Assembly: GCA_963668175.1 (NCBI GenBank)
Contig: OY764159.1
Coordinates: 32,001 to 96,000, forward strand
Length of the DNA: 64,000 nt
Source: Syntrophales bacterium
GTDB taxonomy: Bacteria > Desulfobacterota > Syntrophia > Syntrophales > PHBD01
Direction: 5' to 3'
Shown here piece after piece: positions 27,183-43,645 of the stretch. The notes under the pieces were generated by a model. That model saw only the letters and a list, made by a program, of their open reading frames with translations. It was not told the DNA's origin and did not search any database. The translations under genes were made by a program, and so were the position numbers. Each line of letters begins with the position of its first letter. Position 1 is the stretch's first letter.

Positions 27183-27215
27183 AAAAAAAGGCCGCGATTT
27201 TCGATCACGGCCTTT
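27183..27215 (-). terminator. trp leader terminator 2
   Basis: AAAGGCCGUGAU-CGAAA-AUCGCGGCCUUU with a U7 tract. Confidence 0.8.
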
Positions 27216-27232
27216 CTGTTTAGCTTAAAAGC

Positions 27233-27266
27233 AAAAAAGCCGTGGAGAGCAGGCTCTCCACGGCTT
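27233..27266 (-). terminator. trp leader terminator 1
   Basis: Perfect stem AAGCCGUGGAGAG / CUCUCCACGGCUU with a U6 tract. Confidence 0.88.
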
Positions 27267-27289
27267 ACAGTCTATCTAAGGAACAAACT

Positions 27290-35525: not shown

Positions 35526-36201
35526 CTGCCAGAATTCTGTGAAGCTGCCGCATCTCCTCCGCCGTCAACTGGCCGGGAGCGGTCCTTTCCTCAGGCGACA
35601 AGGCCGCGTAGCTGATACGCGATCCCCAGAAAGGCGCCATGGCCCTGCTCAAGCGGCCCCTGGGCCCCATGCAGAAAGCGATGATGTCCCGGCCCCTTTT
35701 TTGTGAATGGACAAGCAGATTCAAGATCTTGAAATTGTCCGCATCCGTCCTGGCATAAGGAACGACCTTCACGATATCGGCGCCTTCGCCACAGCCCCGA
35801 TCCACCTTGTTTCTCAATGCACGCTCGGAAGGTGTTCCCGACATATCGTGCCATGAGAGAATCAAGTGCGTTTTCCGCTTACAATGGGCAATGGCTGCAG
35901 CGATATTTTTCCTCAAGTCCGGAGACGTCTGCAGTTCCACGTCGATAAAATCCGCCCCCAGTTCGACCGCCTGCGTCAGCAGTGCGATTCGCTCGCCTTC
36001 GCTTCCGGAAAACAATCCTCCCTCTTCCCGGCAGCGGTTAGTGACGATGACCTTCTTTCTTTTCCCGGCAAGGAGCCGTTTCAGGTCGACATCCCTGATC
36101 CCGTCGATCCGCAGTTCTACAACATCTGCCAACGTGAAGGCATTCTTCATTTTGACCAGGGCGTCTTCGTTCGACTCGGGACTAACCGATATGCACATCA
36201 T
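35506..36201 (-). CDS. aroD: Type I 3-dehydroquinate dehydratase
   Basis: VELRID, TNRCREEGG, DVEL, SWHD, TAPGQ; start at MMCIS overlaps the pheA stop. Confidence 0.93.
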   Translation of the reverse strand: MMCISVSPESNEDALVKMKNAFTLADVVELRIDGIRDVDLKRLLAGKRKKVIVTNRCREEGGLFSGSEGERIALLTQAVELGADFIDVELQTSPDLRKNIAAAIAHCKRKTHLILSWHDMSGTPSERALRNKVDRGCGEGADIVKVVPYARTDADNFKILNLLVHSQKRGRDIIAFCMGPRGRLSRAMAPFWGSRISYAALSPEERTAPGQLTAEEMRQLHRILAGDDEDR

Positions 36202-37280
36202 GGCCGGTCCTGCCCCTGGGGATAAGATCCGAGAATTTTGACGAACGCCGCCTGGGTTTTCAGCTCCTGCAGGCATTTCCCGACCTCTTTGTCTTCCGCA
36301 TGCCCCAAAAAATCGGTAAAGAAGAGGTACTCCCATGCCCGGTCCTTGACAGGGTAGGACTCTATCCTCGTCAGATTGACACCGCGCTCCGCAAATGCCG
36401 ACAGGGCCTTATAAAGCGATCCCGGGGCATGGGCCGTCCCGAAAAGGATCGATGTTTTGTCCGCTCCCGTGGGCCTTACATCCCCGCGACCTATCACGAA
36501 GAAGCGGGTTGTGTTGCCCGGATGGTCTTCGATCCCTTCCGCCATGACATTGAGATGATAAGTCGATGCCGCGGCCTGGCTCCCGATCGCGGCTGCTACC
36601 GGGTCCTCGCCGACCCGCCGGGCTGCCCCGGCCGTGCTTTCGACCTCTAAAACGGTCGCCGCGGGCAGATTGGTCCTCAACCAGCCCCGGCACTGGGCAA
36701 TGGCCTGGGGGTGGGAGTAAACCCTGCGCACCGCTTCCAGATCGCGACCAGCCGAAAGCAGGCAATGCCTGATTCTCAAAAAGACTTCCGCCTTTATGCG
36801 AAGCGGCGTGGCGATGAGCCTGTCCAGGGTCAGCTTTACGGAGCCTTCAATGGAATTTTCAATCGGGACGATGCCCAGCTGAACCGCCCCCCTTTCCACC
36901 TCTTCAAAAACACCGGCTATGGACGAAACGGGACGCAGGCCGGCTTGTCTGCCGAATTGCGAAAGGGCCGCCATATGGGAGAAGGATGCTTCGGGTCCCA
37001 GGTAAGCGACGGACAGCTCGACCTGAAGCGCCCGGCAGGCGGAAACGATTTCCCTGAAAATATCGCCCAGGGCCGCATCGGTCAGGGGACCTTCGTTCAC
37101 GCCCGTCACGGATCTGAAAACGTGGCTTTCCTGGGAAGCATCGTATACGCTTCTTCCCTGGGCGTTCTTTTCCTCGCCGATCTCGACGGCCAGGGCAGCT
37201 CGCTCATTGAGCAATTTGACCATATCGCCGTCGGTCTTTCTGATCCTCCGCCTGAGGCGTTCCAGTTTGTTCTCAGCCAT
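36198..37280 (-). CDS. pheA: Bifunctional chorismate mutase/prephenate dehydratase (P-protein)
   Basis: N-terminal CM domain, YLGPEASFS, PIENS, SHPQA, NTTRF, ACT domain NLTRIES. Confidence 0.95.
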   Translation of the reverse strand: MAENKLERLRRRIRKTDGDMVKLLNERAALAVEIGEEKNAQGRSVYDASQESHVFRSVTGVNEGPLTDAALGDIFREIVSACRALQVELSVAYLGPEASFSHMAALSQFGRQAGLRPVSSIAGVFEEVERGAVQLGIVPIENSIEGSVKLTLDRLIATPLRIKAEVFLRIRHCLLSAGRDLEAVRRVYSHPQAIAQCRGWLRTNLPAATVLEVESTAGAARRVGEDPVAAAIGSQAAASTYHLNVMAEGIEDHPGNTTRFFVIGRGDVRPTGADKTSILFGTAHAPGSLYKALSAFAERGVNLTRIESYPVKDRAWEYLFFTDFLGHAEDKEVGKCLQELKTQAAFVKILGSYPQGQDRP

Positions 37281-38373
37281 GCTTCAGTCCCTCGATCGTT
37301 TCCCTTACGACAGGTTCCGGAACTCCACCATTGACAAAGGGCATGCCCATTTTCTTGAGGAGAACAAAATGTATATTCTCTCCCTGTTTCTTTTTGTCCA
37401 TCTTCAGCCGCGCCAAAATAGCGTCGGTTTTCACACCCGGATCTATTCGTTCGACGAGACCCATGTTCCGGATGAAAGAGGTAATTCTATCGGCATCTTC
37501 ATTGCTCAGATAGTTGAGGCGTTGCGATATTCTCGTGGCGGCCGCCATGCCCACGGAAACGGCGTCGCCGTGCGGAATCGCATAATCCGATTCCGCTTCG
37601 AGCGCATGGCCGACGGTGTGTCCGAAGTTGAGGATTCGCCGCAGTCCGGTCTCTTTTTCATCGATCTCCACGATGTTTTTCTTGATCCGGCAGCACGACG
37701 CAATGAGTCCTTCCAAAAAGGATAAATCCCTGTTTCTCAGCTTCTCCACGTTAGCTTCCATCAGGGTGGCGAGTTCCGGCGATTCGATGAGGGCGTACTT
37801 CACCATCTCCGCCAAGCCGTTCCGGAATTCCCGATCCGGCAATGTCCTGAGAAAGGCCGTATCGATGAAGACCGCCTTGGGTTGATGGAACGTGCCGATC
37901 AGGTTCTTCCCGGCGGCCGTGTCGACGCCGGTCTTGCCGCCGATGCAACTGTCTATCTGGGCAAGCAGGGTCGTGGGAAAGTGGATGCACGGTATGCCGC
38001 GCATATACAGGGATGCCATGAGTCCTGCGATATCCCCCGTAACGCCGCCGCCCAGAGCGACGAGCGCCGATGTCCTGTCGGCGCCGAGCGCCGCCAGTTT
38101 TTCGGCGATCTCCAGGCAGGTGGAAAATGATTTGGACTTCTCGCCGGCGGGAAAGTCGATCGTGTCAACCTTCAAATCCGATCTCTTCATCGTCTCACAG
38201 AGAAGGCCGCCGTGAAGGGCTGCCACATTTTCGTCGGCGATGACAAAATAGCGCTTGGCCCAGTTATTCTTGGCCATGATCAGCACCGAACGGTCCAAAA
38301 TATCCTCGCCGATATGGATATCGTACGAATTGATCTGCTTCCGGTCGAGATTGACTTTGAGTTTGTTCATCAT
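37273..38373 (-). CDS. aroB: 3-dehydroquinate synthase
   Basis: [31 protein letters not shown]. Confidence 0.96.
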
Positions 38374-39395
38374 TGCACCCTGATTTCCCTTTTCATAACC
38401 CCCTCTATGATCCTGACCTCGTCCATCATCTGGTAGAACTGTTCCGGCCGCAACGACTGAGGACCGTCGGACATGGCCTTTTCCGGCTCCGGATGGACTT
38501 CGACGATGATTCCATCGGCACCGACGGCGACGGCGGCTCTCGTTAAAGGAAGAACATACTTGGAATAGCCGGCGGCATGAGACGGATCGACGATGACCGG
38601 CAGATGGGTCAGTTCCTTCAGAACGGGAACCGCACTGATGTCGAGGGTGTTGCGCGTTGCCGTCTCGAATGTCCGGATTCCCCGTTCGCAGAGAATCACC
38701 TGCTCGTTGCCGGACGACAGGATATACTCGGCCGACATGAGAAGTTCCTCGATCGTTGTCATCAGTCCTCTTTTCAGGAGCACCGGCTTCTTGGCCTGCC
38801 CGACCTTCTTCAGCAGGGCGAAGTTCTGCACGTTCCGGGCGCCGATCTGGAGGATGTCCGCATAGGCTTCAACGAGGTCCACATCCGTCGTATTCATAAC
38901 CTCGGTGACGACAGGCATGCCCGTCGTCTCCCGGACTTTCTGCAGCAGTTTCAATCCGTCTTCGGCCATTCCCTGAAAACTGTAGGGAGACGTCCTCGGC
39001 TTGAAGGCACCGCCGCGAAGAACGTGGGCGCCCGCCTTCCGCGCGATGTAGGCGCATTCCATGAGCTGCTCGTCGCTCTCGATGGAGCAGGGACCGGCCA
39101 TGACGATGAAGTCCGGGCCGCCGATCTTCAGATCACCCACCTCAATGACGGTATTGCCCTCCTTGACCTCGCGGCTGGCAAGTTTATAGGGCTTGAGAAT
39201 CGGCATAACCTTCTCCACCCCTTCCAGGAATTCCGCCGCCTTCAGATGGGCCTTGCCTCGGTCGTCGCCGACGGCGCCGATGATGGTCCGCTCCACTCCC
39301 CTGGACATGTGGGGATTGTATCCGACCGACTCGATCCACCTTACAACGTTATCTATCTGGCCCTCCGTTGCATTTTTTTTCATTAAAACGATCAT
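38370..39395 (-). CDS. aroF: DAHP synthase, class I-beta, with N-terminal regulatory domain
   Basis: [35 protein letters not shown]; start placed at MIVLMK after a GGAG RBS. Confidence 0.95.
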
Positions 39396-39414
39396 GCTCC
39401 TGACCTCCCCAAAT

Positions 39415-39448
39415 AAAAAGGCCGTGACGTTTTCTGCCGCCACGGCCT
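39415..39448 (-). terminator. aro leader terminator 2
   Basis: AGGCCGUGGCG-GCAGAAAA-CGUCACGGCCU (11 bp) followed by UUUUAUUU. Confidence 0.8.
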
Positions 39449-39454
39449 CAAAAT

Positions 39455-39496
39455 AAAAAAGCCGCGGGCAGTATCACTTTCGATCCACCCGCGGCC
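39455..39496 (-). terminator. aro leader terminator 1
   Basis: GGCCGCGGGUGG ... CUGCCCGCGGCU (12 bp) followed by UUUUUAUUUU. Confidence 0.82.
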
Positions 39497-39517
39497 TATG
39501 TTCTTATGTTATCCTTT

Positions 39518-39622
39518 TCAGATCCTCCTGAACGCCGGGCAGACCGATGCGAAGCTATAATAATAGCTAAACCAGTAGCTAAAGTTAAAGCTTGTTAAAT
39601 CGATCTTTGCGTCCTGCGTCAT
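39518..39622 (-). CDS. aro operon leader peptide MTQDAKIDLTSFNFSYWFSYYYSFASVCPAFRRI
   Basis: 34-aa ORF with 9 aromatic codons (4F, 4Y, 1W) in a 13-codon window, directly upstream of two terminators and aroF. Confidence 0.85.
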   Translation of the reverse strand: MTQDAKIDLTSFNFSYWFSYYYSFASVCPAFRRI

Positions 39623-39842
39623 ACCATCGGCCTTCGTTAAAATTTTGTTAATGAGATCATAAGGCGGACAAATATGTCAAGGAAAAATTTTTCCGGCACA
39701 TGTCACCCGCGTTTTCTTTCATCTTTAACTATCCGTATTTTTAAGGAATTTATTTATTCAAATTTTCTAAGTCTACCCTCTTCAGCAATTAAAAGAAAAG
39801 TGCTTCTCTTTGCTCACGCTAATGTCGATCAGGCAAGGACCA

Positions 39843-40991
39843 TCACGCGGAGGGATAATGATTCCGGTCCTTGAGGACCAGGCCGAGGTATCGTTTATAA
39901 TCTGCGGTACCGGACATCAGGTCCAGGTAATATTTACAGTATTTGGCATTCGCTTTCATCTTGCGCATGGCAAAGAGCGACATCCTGCGGTGATAAAAGG
40001 CTTTTCTCAACCAGAAGGCCTGCCGGAAAAGGGGATAAATCCTGCTGCGGAGGGCCGTATGATAGGCTGAAAGCACATCCTTTTTCGAGAGTATGGCTTC
40101 CGCCGCCAATTTCCCGCTCAGCATGGCAAAATACATCCCTTCGCCGGTGATAGGCTCTACCAGACCCGCAGCATCTCCGGCAAGCAACACCTTTCCTTTT
40201 CCCGGTTGTTTCATAAAATTGTGGAACGGTATCGGGTAGCCGCTCACGCGCTCCGGCATATTGGCCTCGTTTTTCAGAAGACGACGAAGAAAGACTTGAA
40301 AGTGGTCTTTCATGTTTTTGCCGTTGGATCTCGTCAAACCGCCGAGGCCGACCGTCGCGAAAGCAGGCTTGGGAAATACCCATCCATAACCGGCGTTGAT
40401 GAAACCGAAATGGATTTGCGGATAGACACCGTCATGGTCAAAACATGTCAGATGCTCATAGGGAATGTCCGCTTCGATGCCGACGGCAAATTCAGCCCTC
40501 CTGACGCGGGGGGAAACGGCCCTGCGGACAACGCTGTAAGGGCCGTCCGCGCCGACTATGAAGTCCGCGGCCAATACATCTCCATTGTCCAGGACGACAC
40601 GATCCTGCGCGACCGCCTTGACTGCATGCCCGCATAAGATCGTACATCCGGAAGCCCGGGCTTTGTTGAGGAAATAGTGATCGAAGCTCGTCCTGTCGAC
40701 GGCGAAAAACCGTTCGGTCGGACCGGACCATTTGCATATCTTTCCCAGGTCTGCATGATAAATGCCGAAGGCGGAGGACTCCATGAGCACAAAGTCCTGC
40801 CGTGCGACGTCCCCGTATATTTCCTTTATCAGGGGTATCGCTTTTTCGGTCAGGAGCCCGCCGCACAATTTCTTGCGGGGGAAGATGGCTTTATCGACGA
40901 CCAGGACCTTCCGGCCGTTCGCCGCCAGGGTATGTGCCGCGGCGGCGCCGGCGCAGCTTCCGCCCACGATGACCACGTCATGCTTTTCCAT
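39843..40991 (-). CDS. Geranylgeranyl reductase family FAD-dependent oxidoreductase
   Basis: VVIVGGSCAG, FPRKKLCGG, GADG, GYGWVFPK, GDAAGLVEPITGEG; start placed at MEKHD. Confidence 0.88.
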   Translation of the reverse strand: MEKHDVVIVGGSCAGAAAAHTLAANGRKVLVVDKAIFPRKKLCGGLLTEKAIPLIKEIYGDVARQDFVLMESSAFGIYHADLGKICKWSGPTERFFAVDRTSFDHYFLNKARASGCTILCGHAVKAVAQDRVVLDNGDVLAADFIVGADGPYSVVRRAVSPRVRRAEFAVGIEADIPYEHLTCFDHDGVYPQIHFGFINAGYGWVFPKPAFATVGLGGLTRSNGKNMKDHFQVFLRRLLKNEANMPERVSGYPIPFHNFMKQPGKGKVLLAGDAAGLVEPITGEGMYFAMLSGKLAAEAILSKKDVLSAYHTALRSRIYPLFRQAFWLRKAFYHRRMSLFAMRKMKANAKYCKYYLDLMSGTADYKRYLGLVLKDRNHYPSA

Positions 40992-41064: not shown

Positions 41065-42380
41065 TCACTCGATCTTGCCGGATGATCTGCGGGCGGCATT
41101 CAACCGCACGCTGACGGAGTTGCCGTGGCCGTCGAGACCTTCCAGCGCGGCAAAACGGGCCGTCCGGCGCCCGAACTTCTGCAGGGCTTCTTCCGAATAG
41201 GAGAGGACGCTCGTCCGCTTGATGAAATCATAGACGCCCAAGGGGGAAGAAAACCTGGCCGTGCCGCCCGTCGGCAGGATATGATTGGGACCGGCCGTAT
41301 AATCCCCGAATGCCTCCGGTGTATAATGGCCGAGGAAAATGGCACCGGCGTGTCTGATCTTTTCCATGAGCTTCCCGGGATTTTCGACCATCAACTCCAG
41401 GTGTTCCGGTGCAATGTCATTGGAAATACCGGCGGCCTCGTCCAAATCTCCGGCAATAATGACGGCGCCGTGCGATTCCAGCGCCTGCCGGATGATGTCC
41501 TTCTTGGGAAGGCGCTCCAGTTGGGCATTGACGTCCTTTTTCACCTCGGCAGCGTATGACTCGTCGGTTGTAACGAGAATGGCGCGGGCCATTTCGTCGT
41601 GTTCCGCCTGGGCGATCAGGTCCGCAGCCGCAAAAGCGGCCGGTCCCTTGCCGTCGGCGATAATCAAGACTTCGCTGGGACCGGCGATCATGTCGATATC
41701 CACCGCACCGAATACCAGTTTCTTGGCCGCCGCCACATAAGCGTTTCCCGGTCCGACGATCTTATCCACCCGGGGGATGGATTGCGTACCGTAGGCAAGG
41801 GCTGCCACGGCCTGAGCGCCGCCGACCTTGAATATGCGCGTCACACCTCCGATCCGGGCCGCGGCGGCGATCAGGGGATTCAGATTCCGGCTCTTGACAG
41901 GCGAGACGAGAATAATGTCTTCAACGCCGGCAATCACGGCGGGAATCGCCGCCATCAGGACCGTGGACGGATAAATGGCCAGACCGCCCGGGCATAGATA
42001 CCAACCCTATCCAGCGGCCTGACCCTTTGCCCCACGACCAGACCGTTTCGCTCGCGGATTTCATAGTCCCCTGTCTTCTGTTTTCGGTGAAACGCCCGTA
42101 TGCGTTTCGCGGCCAGGGTCAGAATGGCTTTGTCGTTTCTGGAAACCTCCCCTGCCGCTTTGTCCCACTCTTCCTGCGTCACCTCCACCGTGCGGGCGTC
42201 GAGTTCCTGATGATCGAATCTGGCCGTGTACTTAAAGAGGGCCCCGTCGCCGTTTCGGACGACGTCGTCGATGATGGCGCTCACGGACGACCAGATGCCG
42301 GCGTCGAACATCTCCCGACGTTGACTGATTTCTCGAAAGAAAGCGGCGAAACCGCTGTCGGTTGTCCTGATTGTTTTCAT
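41065..42380 (-). pseudogene. hisD: Histidinol dehydrogenase with a 1-nt frameshift near 41990 (real lesion or sequencing error)
   Basis: The N-terminal part (MKTIRT...PLDRVGIYA) and C-terminal part (IYPSTVLMAAIPA...GPGNAYV, DMIAGPSE, AQAEHD, APEHL) are in different frames; adding one base restores the conserved YxPGG. Confidence 0.85.
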
Positions 42381-42394
42381 GTCGTTACTCCTTA

Positions 42395-43645
42395 TCAGAC
42401 CTTGACGCGGACAATGTCTGCCCCCAGGGCGGAAAATTTCTTTTCGATAGCCTCGTATCCACGATCGAGGTGATAAACCCGGGAGACTTCCGTTTTGCCC
42501 TCTGCGGCAAGGCCGGCCAGGATGAGCGACGCCGAGGCGCGTAAATCGGTCGCCATGACCTGGGCACCCTTCAGCCTGGGAATCCCCCGGACAACGGCCG
42601 TATGACCCTGAATCGTGATGTCGGCTCCCATCCGCATAAGTTCGCTCACATGCATGAAGCGATTTTCGAAGACCGTCTCGGAAATGACGCTCAAACCGCC
42701 GGCCATGGCCATGAGCGCCATGATTTGTGCCTGCAGGTCCGTGGCGAATCCGGGAAAGGGGTGGGTCGTCACATCCACGCTTCTGATTGTGCCGGTGCCG
42801 ATCACCCGCATGCCGCCCTCGACCGGCTGAACTTTCATACCCGCATCCCTTAGTTTGGCGGTCAGGGCATCGACGTGCGACGGCTCGCAACCCATGACCC
42901 TGATATCGCCGCCGGTCATGCCGGCCGCGATCATAAAGGTTCCCGCCTCGATACGGTCGGACATCACCTCGGCGTCATAGGGTTTCAGCCGTTTCACCCC
43001 GTCGATGGTAATGATGTCGGTGCCGGCGCCGCGAATATTGGCCCCCATGCCGTTGAGGACCTCAGCCAAATTGACGATTTCGGGCTCGCGGGCGGCATTT
43101 TTCAGGACGGTTGTCCCGTCGGCCAAAGCCGCGGCCATCATGATATTTTCCGTGCCCGTCACCGTCACGGGATCGAAAAAGATCGTCGCCCCATGCAGCC
43201 TTTTGACATTGGCGACGACATAACCGTCTTTCAAGTCGATTTTCGCCCCCATATCCTCCAGGGCCTTGATATGGAGGTTAACCGGCCTGGCGCCTATGGC
43301 GCAGCCGCCGGGAAGGGACACGCGCGCCTCCCCGGTCCGCGCCACCAATGGGCCCAGAACCAGGATGGAAGCCCGCATGGTCTTCACCAACTCGTAAGAG
43401 GCTTCCGTATTCGATATGTTGCCCGCGTTGATCCGCAAAGGGGGCCCTTCGTCGATCTCGACGCCGAAACTCTTGAGCAGTTTCTTTGTCGTCTGGATAT
43501 CCACCAGATTGGGGATGTTGTGACACGTATTCCATCCGTCGGTCAGAAGCGAAGCAATCATGATCGGCAGGGCGGCGTTTTTCGCGCCGCTGACGCGGAC
43601 ATCACCTTCCAGTCTATGTCCGCCGTTGATAACGATTTTATCCAT
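42395..43645 (-). CDS. murA: UDP-N-acetylglucosamine 1-carboxyvinyltransferase
   Basis: [30 protein letters not shown]. Confidence 0.98.

Follow-up and report, generated by a model that had tools for sequence, protein, structure and literature searches.

The aroF-aroB-pheA operon in a 64,000-nucleotide (nt) stretch of a Syntrophales genome (positions 32,001 to 96,000 of contig OY764159.1, assembly GCA_963668175.1; hereafter the window, with G000 denoting its source genome) is preceded by a leader that is probably a ribosome-mediated attenuator with six pairing segments and two serial intrinsic terminators, T1 and T2, connected by a relay. On the minus strand, the locus runs from a leader open reading frame (ORF) through T1, T2 and a ribosome-binding site (RBS) into the three genes. 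Computation establishes its structures with their energies, conservation and covariation, as well as the order of emergence of the segments. The leader shows clustered aromatic codons, intrinsic terminators before the first gene and, in computed folds, a stall-dependent antiterminator, the features by which leader-peptide attenuators are recognized. The elements of the locus, with minimum free energy abbreviated as MFE, are as follows.

39675..39680, minus strand: putative promoter −35 hexamer TTGACA, with no clear −10, read by eye
39518..39622, minus strand: leader ORF MTQDAKIDLTSFNFSYWFSYYYSFASVCPAFRRI, 34 codons plus UGA, from the ORF list
39599..39606, minus strand: region 1, 5′ strand of the 1:2 helix (anti-antiterminator), from MFE folds
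39551..39589, minus strand: regulatory-codon run, codons 12–24 (F N F S Y W F S Y Y Y S F), used as stall positions in ribosome-mask folds
39533..39548, minus strand: region 2 UCGGUCUGCCCGGCG, partner of region 1 or of the T1 5′ arm and loop, from folds and alignment
39460..39496, minus strand: T1 terminator hairpin, −26.3 kcal/mol folded alone
39450..39460, minus strand: T1 U tract TTTTTTATTTT, doubling as the loop of the cross hairpin, from sequence and fold
39434..39471, minus strand: cross hairpin (proposed anti-T2), 14 bp with a GC bulge, −21.0 kcal/mol, from folds, alignment and barrier estimates
39418..39449, minus strand: T2 terminator hairpin, −23.0 kcal/mol folded alone, U tract at 39419-39411
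39404..39410, minus strand: RBS GGGGAGG of aroF, read from the sequence
38370..39395, minus strand: aroF-type DAHP synthase with an N-terminal ferredoxin-like domain (Pfam DAHP_synth_1 7.1e-84, DAHP_snth_FXD 9.7e-23)
37273..38373, minus strand: aroB, 3-dehydroquinate synthase (Pfam DHQ_synthase 1.5e-44, DHQS_C 7.6e-44)
36198..37280, minus strand: pheA, chorismate mutase/prephenate dehydratase with an ACT domain (Pfam PDT 3.1e-63, CM_2 1.4e-17, ACT 4e-10)

In the proposed mechanism, charged aromatic transfer RNAs would let the ribosome traverse the leader (OFF state), and either region 1 would hold region 2 or the ribosome between regions 2 and 3 would keep region 3 away. T1 would fold and most polymerases would stop at its U tract; a polymerase escaping T1 would leave it folded, so that T2 would fold as well and stop that polymerase. 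With the ribosome stalled at Phe, Tyr or Trp codons (ON state), region 2 would capture the T1 5′ arm and loop, leaving the T1 3′ arm single-stranded. About 10 nt later this free arm would pair with the emerging T2 5′ arm, using the T1 U tract as a loop, before the T2 3′ arm is synthesized; neither terminator would form and the operon would be transcribed. The signal would thus be handed over in two steps, in which helix 2:3 frees segment 4 and helix 4:5 pre-empts helix 5:6. We infer that termination occurs at both sites in vivo and that the benefit of the arrangement would be a multiplicatively lower basal level with the induced level kept.

Two terminators and their cross pairing

An earlier reading of the sequence alone had placed two consecutive GC-rich hairpins with U tracts after the leader ORF, and both the folds and the sequence agree with it. 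T1 consists of a 5′ arm at 39496-39482 and a 3′ arm at 39475-39460, followed by its U tract at 39460-39450; T2 consists of a 5′ arm at 39449-39438 and a 3′ arm at 39429-39418, followed by the U run TTTTTATTT (39419-39411). Both hairpins are present in the MFE structure of the whole 236-nt leader (39640-39405, minus strand; −85.7 kcal/mol, z = −5.27), and none of 200 shuffled sequences folded as well. Five mutually exclusive helices were all found by folding, namely 1:2, 2:3, 3:4 (T1), 4:5 (the cross hairpin) and 5:6 (T2). Region 2 UCGGUCUGCCCGGC (39548-39533) forms the antiterminator with the T1 5′ arm and loop at −24.6 kcal/mol and has region 1 (39606-39599) as its alternative partner.

The cross hairpin joins CUGCCCGCGGCUUU (39471-39458) to GAGGCCGUG (39449-39441) and GGCAG (39438-39434), extending from the T1 loop to the T2 loop as a 14-bp helix interrupted by a 2-nt GC bulge and closed by a U-rich loop of 8 nt (−21.0 kcal/mol). 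This is the complementarity of about 13 bp with a small bulge that the sequence-only reading had described between the T1 3′ arm and the T2 5′ arm. Its added point that T2 does not itself need the GGCAG bases was correct for four of the five, which lie in the T2 loop, and incorrect for the fifth, which is part of the T2 stem.

The leader ORF carries ten Phe, Tyr or Trp residues among its 34 codons, nine of them within codons 12–24. T1 begins 21 bases 3′ of the UGA, and aroF starts with ATG at 39395, after GGGGAGG. No ORF of at least 20 codons in the ORF list of the window falls between T1 and T2, which are separated by a spacer of about 10 nt. A simple consensus terminator scan flagged only T2 (one site versus 1.7 expected from shuffles). 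When positions 39300-39900 were searched with cmscan against Rfam, four weak matches were returned, all far below the gathering threshold (the best, SorY, at 21.4 bits versus 111), and no leader family (Phe_leader, Trp_leader and so on) matched at an expectation value (E) up to 10. The TTGACA hexamer at 39680-39675 is absent from the output of a simple promoter scan, whose matches were unconvincing; the leaders of relatives likewise have a CTTGACA upstream, at a comparable distance.

Conservation of the cross pairing

Of 60 related genomes from the same order, 58 have a clear ortholog of the DAHP synthase (best E ≤ 1e-145), and the 400 nt upstream were gathered for 59 aroF genes, including that of G000. 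Most of these genes have aromatic-rich leader ORFs upstream. T1 and T2 are both kept in 52 of the 59 leaders, or 22 of 24 families, of which 50 were recovered by a strict scan for adjacent terminators and two (G010 and G034) by alignment; the spacing between T1 and T2 is 6–19 nt. A cross hairpin is predicted in every one of the 52 (mean −20.2, range −13.7 to −26.7). Lack of conservation had been named in the sequence-only reading as an outcome that would count against its proposal that the freed T1 3′ arm becomes the antiterminator of T2; the pairing proved to be conserved among the orthologous leaders, and the proposal is supported.

The mirror combination, T1 5′ arm with T2 3′ arm, is an informative control because likeness or duplication of T1 and T2 would make both directions pair. 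The forward duplex (T1 3′ arm with T2 5′ arm) averages −21.5 versus −13.7 for the mirror and is the stronger of the two in 51 of 52 leaders. Fixed-column counts were made on an alignment of the 52 sequences (A1) and compared with 500 shuffles, a control that ignores phylogeny. In the cross helix 91.5% of cells are paired, compared with 31–53% when the partners are slid, and 25 cells are changed on both sides versus 6.2 ± 3.5 in shuffles, none of which reached 25. Covariation in this helix is 0.233 versus 0.203 in shuffles (reached by 0 of 500). The mirror, with 68.2% of cells paired, shows a covariation of 0.107 versus 0.103, which 103 of 500 shuffles reached. For reference, the T1 and T2 helices have 94.2% of cells paired, with changes on both sides at 14 of 25 pairs, and the antiterminator helix has 86.7% paired with a covariation of 0.226 versus 0.204 (reached by one of 500 shuffles).

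Two base pairs belong to the cross helix only. Pair 109-153 occurs as GC in 15 sequences, AU in 11 and GU in 6, and pair 108-154 as CG in 20, UG in 19 and UA in 10; the GC and AU states of 109-153 both occur within family f1 and in several other families. T2 position 154 can pair with T1 position 108 in 49 of 52 leaders and with its own T2 partner, position 168, in 39. Of the stem bases in the T2 5′ arm, the cross hairpin covers 94% on average, with 42 of the 52 leaders at 90% or more, compared with 49% and 56% in two null sets, in which coverage of at least 90% is seen in 3.0% and 8.5% of pairs. It leaves a toehold of at most one base on the T2 5′ arm in 49 of 52 leaders.

The same alignment bears on what the repeats are. 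Because CCATGG-type palindromes occur twice, about 45 bp apart, they could be imagined to act in DNA as palindromic operators or transcription-factor roadblocks instead of as RNA terminators. This we regard as extremely improbable: the T run after T1 is nearly invariant, each repeat has a conserved T run behind it on just the coding strand, the terminator stems retain many G-U pairs (152-170 is GU in 13 sequences and 144-178 in 15), and the repeats lie 3′ of leader ORFs with regulatory codons in five different operons (described below). The strong conservation of both stems could also reflect a binding site, with T2 regulated by another agent (an RNA-binding protein, an elongation factor or a second signal), or with the terminated leader serving as a trans-acting small RNA of which T2 would define a second isoform. 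Attenuator-derived small RNAs are known, as the available text on rnTrpL of Sinorhizobium attests (PMC6614838). Such an account is very unlikely, since only about 10 nt separate T1 from T2, with no second sensor or ORF, the stems tolerate G-U and compensatory changes as expected of RNA helices, and nothing in the present analysis pointed to a protein partner; a role in trans would in any case be compatible with the relay.

Three further features of the orthologous leaders were seen. A peptide motif, VCP..RR, near the leader C terminus is conserved across families; it coincides with the antiterminator RNA segment GGUCUGCCC (39533-39545), so its conservation is probably at the RNA level. In family f8 (L009 of G015 and L008 of G036), the T1/T2 leader lies about 170–250 nt upstream of aroF, with an extra GC-rich stretch between. 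Family f12 (L018 of G019, L066 of G039 and L063 of G057) has a single terminator whose stem base resembles T2 (GGCC...GGCC) and whose upper part resembles T1, which suggests a tandem collapsed by deletion between the repeated cores.

Tandem leaders in other operons and lineages

The sequence-only reading had treated the tandem design as a feature of the aro attenuator. This framing was too narrow: the design recurs in several operons of the genome and across the phylum. A covariance model of T1 plus T2 was built from the aro leaders and used to search G000 and samples of the class and the phylum. In G000, it found five leaders.

Aromatic leader, minus strand of the window: before aroF, the present locus
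WWW leader MIQVMSSIGSWWWRKSREGFVRC with three consecutive Trp codons, tandem at 27183-27271 and leader upstream to about 27360, minus strand of the window: before anthranilate synthase component I (Pfam Chorismate_bind 1.1e-96)
Phe-rich leader L083, G000:C1:3384885-3384963, outside the window: before a Peripla_BP_6 binding protein
Ala-rich leader L084, G000:C1:1960463-1960550, outside the window: before a class I/II aminotransferase
Val-rich leader L086, G000:C1:491523-491603, outside the window: before a thiamine pyrophosphate enzyme of the acetolactate-synthase type

The trp tandem in the window has a T1-T2 spacer of 21 nt and a cross hairpin of −19.1. Judging from their codons, the leaders suggest substrates for the Peripla_BP_6 transporter and the class I/II aminotransferase. 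A model-free scan of G000 returned 23 tandem pairs, only four of which are clean canonical tandems, all of them leader-peptide attenuators among the five found with the model. The other 19 were set aside as sloppy hairpins, mostly inside or between unrelated ORFs. A weak model match (E 0.017) at G000:C1:193355-193415 (plus strand, outside the window) contains one CCAUGG-type terminator only, AAAGGCCAUGGGUGAAAAAUCCAUGGCCUUU; 13 nt further on begins a gene whose product starts with VRSHTMYEVIWHGRGGQGVV.

In the class sample the model matched 148 of 151 genomes, all of the same order and mostly with two to six matches each (E ≤ 0.001). In the phylum sample it matched 83 of 151 genomes, including 78 of the 146 outside the order. 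Ten loci from other classes were inspected, and all have a leader ORF and two terminators; by eye, nine are aromatic-rich leaders before a DAHP synthase or aldolase-like gene and one is a Trp-run leader before a TrpB-like gene. Four aromatic tandem leaders from other classes (L096, L099, L100 and L104) precede a gene of 264–266 amino acids starting MIGKRIRMERI..., whose product may be the aldolase-type enzyme (class I) that acts in the alternative dehydroquinate pathway.

It is possible, and we propose it tentatively, that the two-terminator relay constitutes a distinct, lineage-wide attenuator class in Thermodesulfobacteriota-like bacteria that includes aromatic, Trp, Phe-uptake, Val and Ala leaders. 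Throughout such a class, the first terminator would supply, with its 3′ arm and its U tract, the antiterminator of the second, one stall would open both, and the basal leak would be the product of two escape probabilities.

Folding order and a back-up terminator as alternative

In transcripts ending before the T1 3′ arm, the 1:2 helix forms in the absence of a ribosome and the antiterminator does not. When a ribosome was masked at codons 12–22 of the same truncated transcripts, the antiterminator was the MFE structure for eight of nine positions (all but codon 18), in agreement with the claim from sequence that the leader antiterminator captures the T1 5′ arm; a mask at codon 24, which overlaps region 2, left it only 21% formed. 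Constrained folding of both states, as had been suggested, recovered the antiterminator before the T1 3′ arm is made, and failed to recover the ON state, which was never the MFE structure at full length. The direct-path barrier from the antiterminator to T1 in G000 is estimated at 19.9 kcal/mol. From the cross hairpin to T2, such barriers average 13.2 kcal/mol (10.4 in G000; at least 10 in 45 of 52 leaders). All these estimates are crude upper bounds. They are compatible with a trap that would outlast the fraction of a second the polymerase takes past T2, and the cross hairpin may out-compete T2 kinetically.

A number of results weigh against the relay, and beyond the crudeness of the barriers several concern energetics. 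At equilibrium, T1 plus T2 is the MFE structure at every transcript length and with every ribosome mask tried. The ON state is never favoured there, so a thermodynamic switch is rejected and any switch must be kinetic. T2 is calculated to be slightly more stable (−23.0) than the cross hairpin (−21.0), and the model depends wholly on folding order. A naive footprint mask at the stop codon leaves the antiterminator 0.79 formed; the OFF state would depend on steric hindrance of the 2:3 helix by a ribosome sitting in the loop of 35 nt.

Others concern the specificity of the pairing. When 3000 pairs were drawn at random from 1549 terminator-like hairpins in G000, their cross hairpins had a mean of −13.7 ± 4.5 and 6.1% reached −21; a stricter pool of 119 canonical terminators gave a mean of −9.5 ± 4.6, with 1.5% of 4000 pairs reaching −21. 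Judged in G000 alone, the cross hairpin ranks between roughly the 1st and the 6th percentile of such random pairs, which is suggestive and not decisive. Part of the complementarity is generic, consisting of GC-rich stem bases and of the T1 U tract facing A/G-rich bases before T2. T1 and T2 also have a near-palindromic core in common (CCAUGG; here CCGCGG/CCGUGG), from which some cross pairing would follow if they arose by duplication.

The comparative evidence has its own weak points. A single terminator or a degenerate T2 suffices in seven of the 59 lineages: G019, G039 and G057, all of family f12, have T1 only, G030, G038 and G058 lack a proper T2, and the T2 of G056 has a poor U tract. The shuffles behind the covariation counts ignore phylogeny, as stated above. 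For leaders other than aro, 31 model matches in six genomes were examined, comprising 22 non-aro tandems, six aro leaders, one match without a second hairpin and two that could not be parsed as attenuators. In the 22 tandems the forward bias is weaker (coverage 0.86 forward versus 0.71 mirror; forward greater in 13, equal in five and lower in four), and the Val and Ala leaders show none. Since this set was picked with an aro-trained model, it is biased towards likeness of T1 and T2 and is not independent confirmation.

The common CCAUGG-type core, the averages of −9.5 to −13.7 that random terminator pairs already attain, the lack of a forward-over-mirror excess in Val and Ala leaders and the unvarying T1-plus-T2 equilibrium fold would also be expected if T2 were an unregulated back-up terminator that reduces transcription by the same factor in both states, with the complementarity a by-product of duplication, the palindromic core and generic features. 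We consider this unlikely. Duplication should favour mirror pairing equally, yet the mirror pairs poorly and without covariation; compensatory changes occur at the cross-only pairs 108-154 and 109-153; and the nulls fall far short of the coverage seen for the T2 5′ arm. A weaker promoter could replace such a terminator, yet 22 of 24 families and 148 of 151 sampled genomes of the lineage have retained the tandem. Placed between the regulated terminator and the gene, a second, constitutive one would have no regulatory purpose. The relay, by comparison, would account for a second perfect terminator being kept at this place and for conservation in the T1-3′/T2-5′ direction only, and under it both stems would evolve slowly because most of their bases have two partners. 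As judged from the sequences, the weight of the case for cross pairing comes from this conservation and not from the odds in a single genome.

Comparison with known attenuators

Leader-peptide attenuation is a textbook mechanism worked out almost wholly on enteric examples with a single terminator. Classical aromatic attenuators include trpL-trpEDCBA, pheL-pheA and pheM-pheST of Escherichia coli and aroR-aroF of Corynebacterium glutamicum, the last of which is, in the available text, a precedent for placing a DAHP synthase operon under an aromatic leader (PMC11802643). As in all of these, the present leader has a short ORF rich in end-product codons, competing 1:2, 2:3 and 3:4 helices and an intrinsic terminator before the first gene. 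Unlike the classical aromatic attenuators, it has a second complete terminator about 10 nt further on, and the 5′ arm of this terminator is complementary to the T1 3′ arm.

The his attenuator of Salmonella and E. coli is said to have been described by Johnston and colleagues in 1980 as alternating between hairpins A:B, C:D and E:F on one side and B:C and D:E on the other. Only its last hairpin is reported to be a terminator. So described, it resembles the present leader in relaying a stall through a chain of mutually exclusive hairpins over six segments and differs in that here the middle hairpin, T1, is itself a canonical terminator, with a conserved U tract that doubles as the loop of helix 4:5. 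The available text on the his operon confirms the general attenuation model only (PMC3896937).

Serial terminators in one leader have been described in other settings, and they sharpen or tighten the response there. The mgtCBR operon of Salmonella has the tandem attenuators mgtM and mgtP, each terminator having its own sensor. The same is true of the tandem THI riboswitches of Desulfovibrio, according to the available text of Rodionov et al. 2004, in which leaders of the tandem-terminator kind are not mentioned (PMC545781). In the present leader, by contrast, both terminators share a single leader ORF, and the spacer of about 10 nt has no room for a sensor. The rimP-leader of some Gammaproteobacteria also has a second terminator in tandem and a potential antiterminator; as far as the available text goes, it lacks a leader peptide, its extra terminator precedes the conserved one and nothing is said of a hand-over from one terminator to the other (Naville and Gautheret 2010, PMC2965389). 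The 'zipper-type' attenuator of pLS20, as presented in the available text, operates differently from a cross-pairing relay (PMC13401043). In the full-text literature searched, which did not extend to supplements or to subscription work on delta-proteobacterial attenuators, no description was found of a leader-peptide attenuator whose two terminators are joined through cross pairing.

Were the relay to hold, one sensing event would be passed from terminator to terminator, and RNA folding order alone would multiply the dynamic range with no extra factors. A leader ORF followed by tandem terminators would then provide an annotation rule for amino-acid-regulated operons in a large, mostly uncultured lineage, which would extend to transporter and aminotransferase genes whose substrates could be guessed from leader codons. 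The element would also be a compact natural part for synthetic biology. Its interest lies mainly in its conservation, its generality within a large lineage and the ease with which it can be tested.

Neighbouring genes

The gene upstream of the aroF leader encodes an unrelated flavin adenine dinucleotide (FAD)-dependent oxidoreductase and ends at 39843. Further upstream, two abutting minus-strand ORFs (41065-41955 and 41955-42890) occupy different frames and by eye resemble what we take to be the C-terminal and N-terminal parts, respectively, of histidinol dehydrogenase; the split could be a frameshift or an assembly error.

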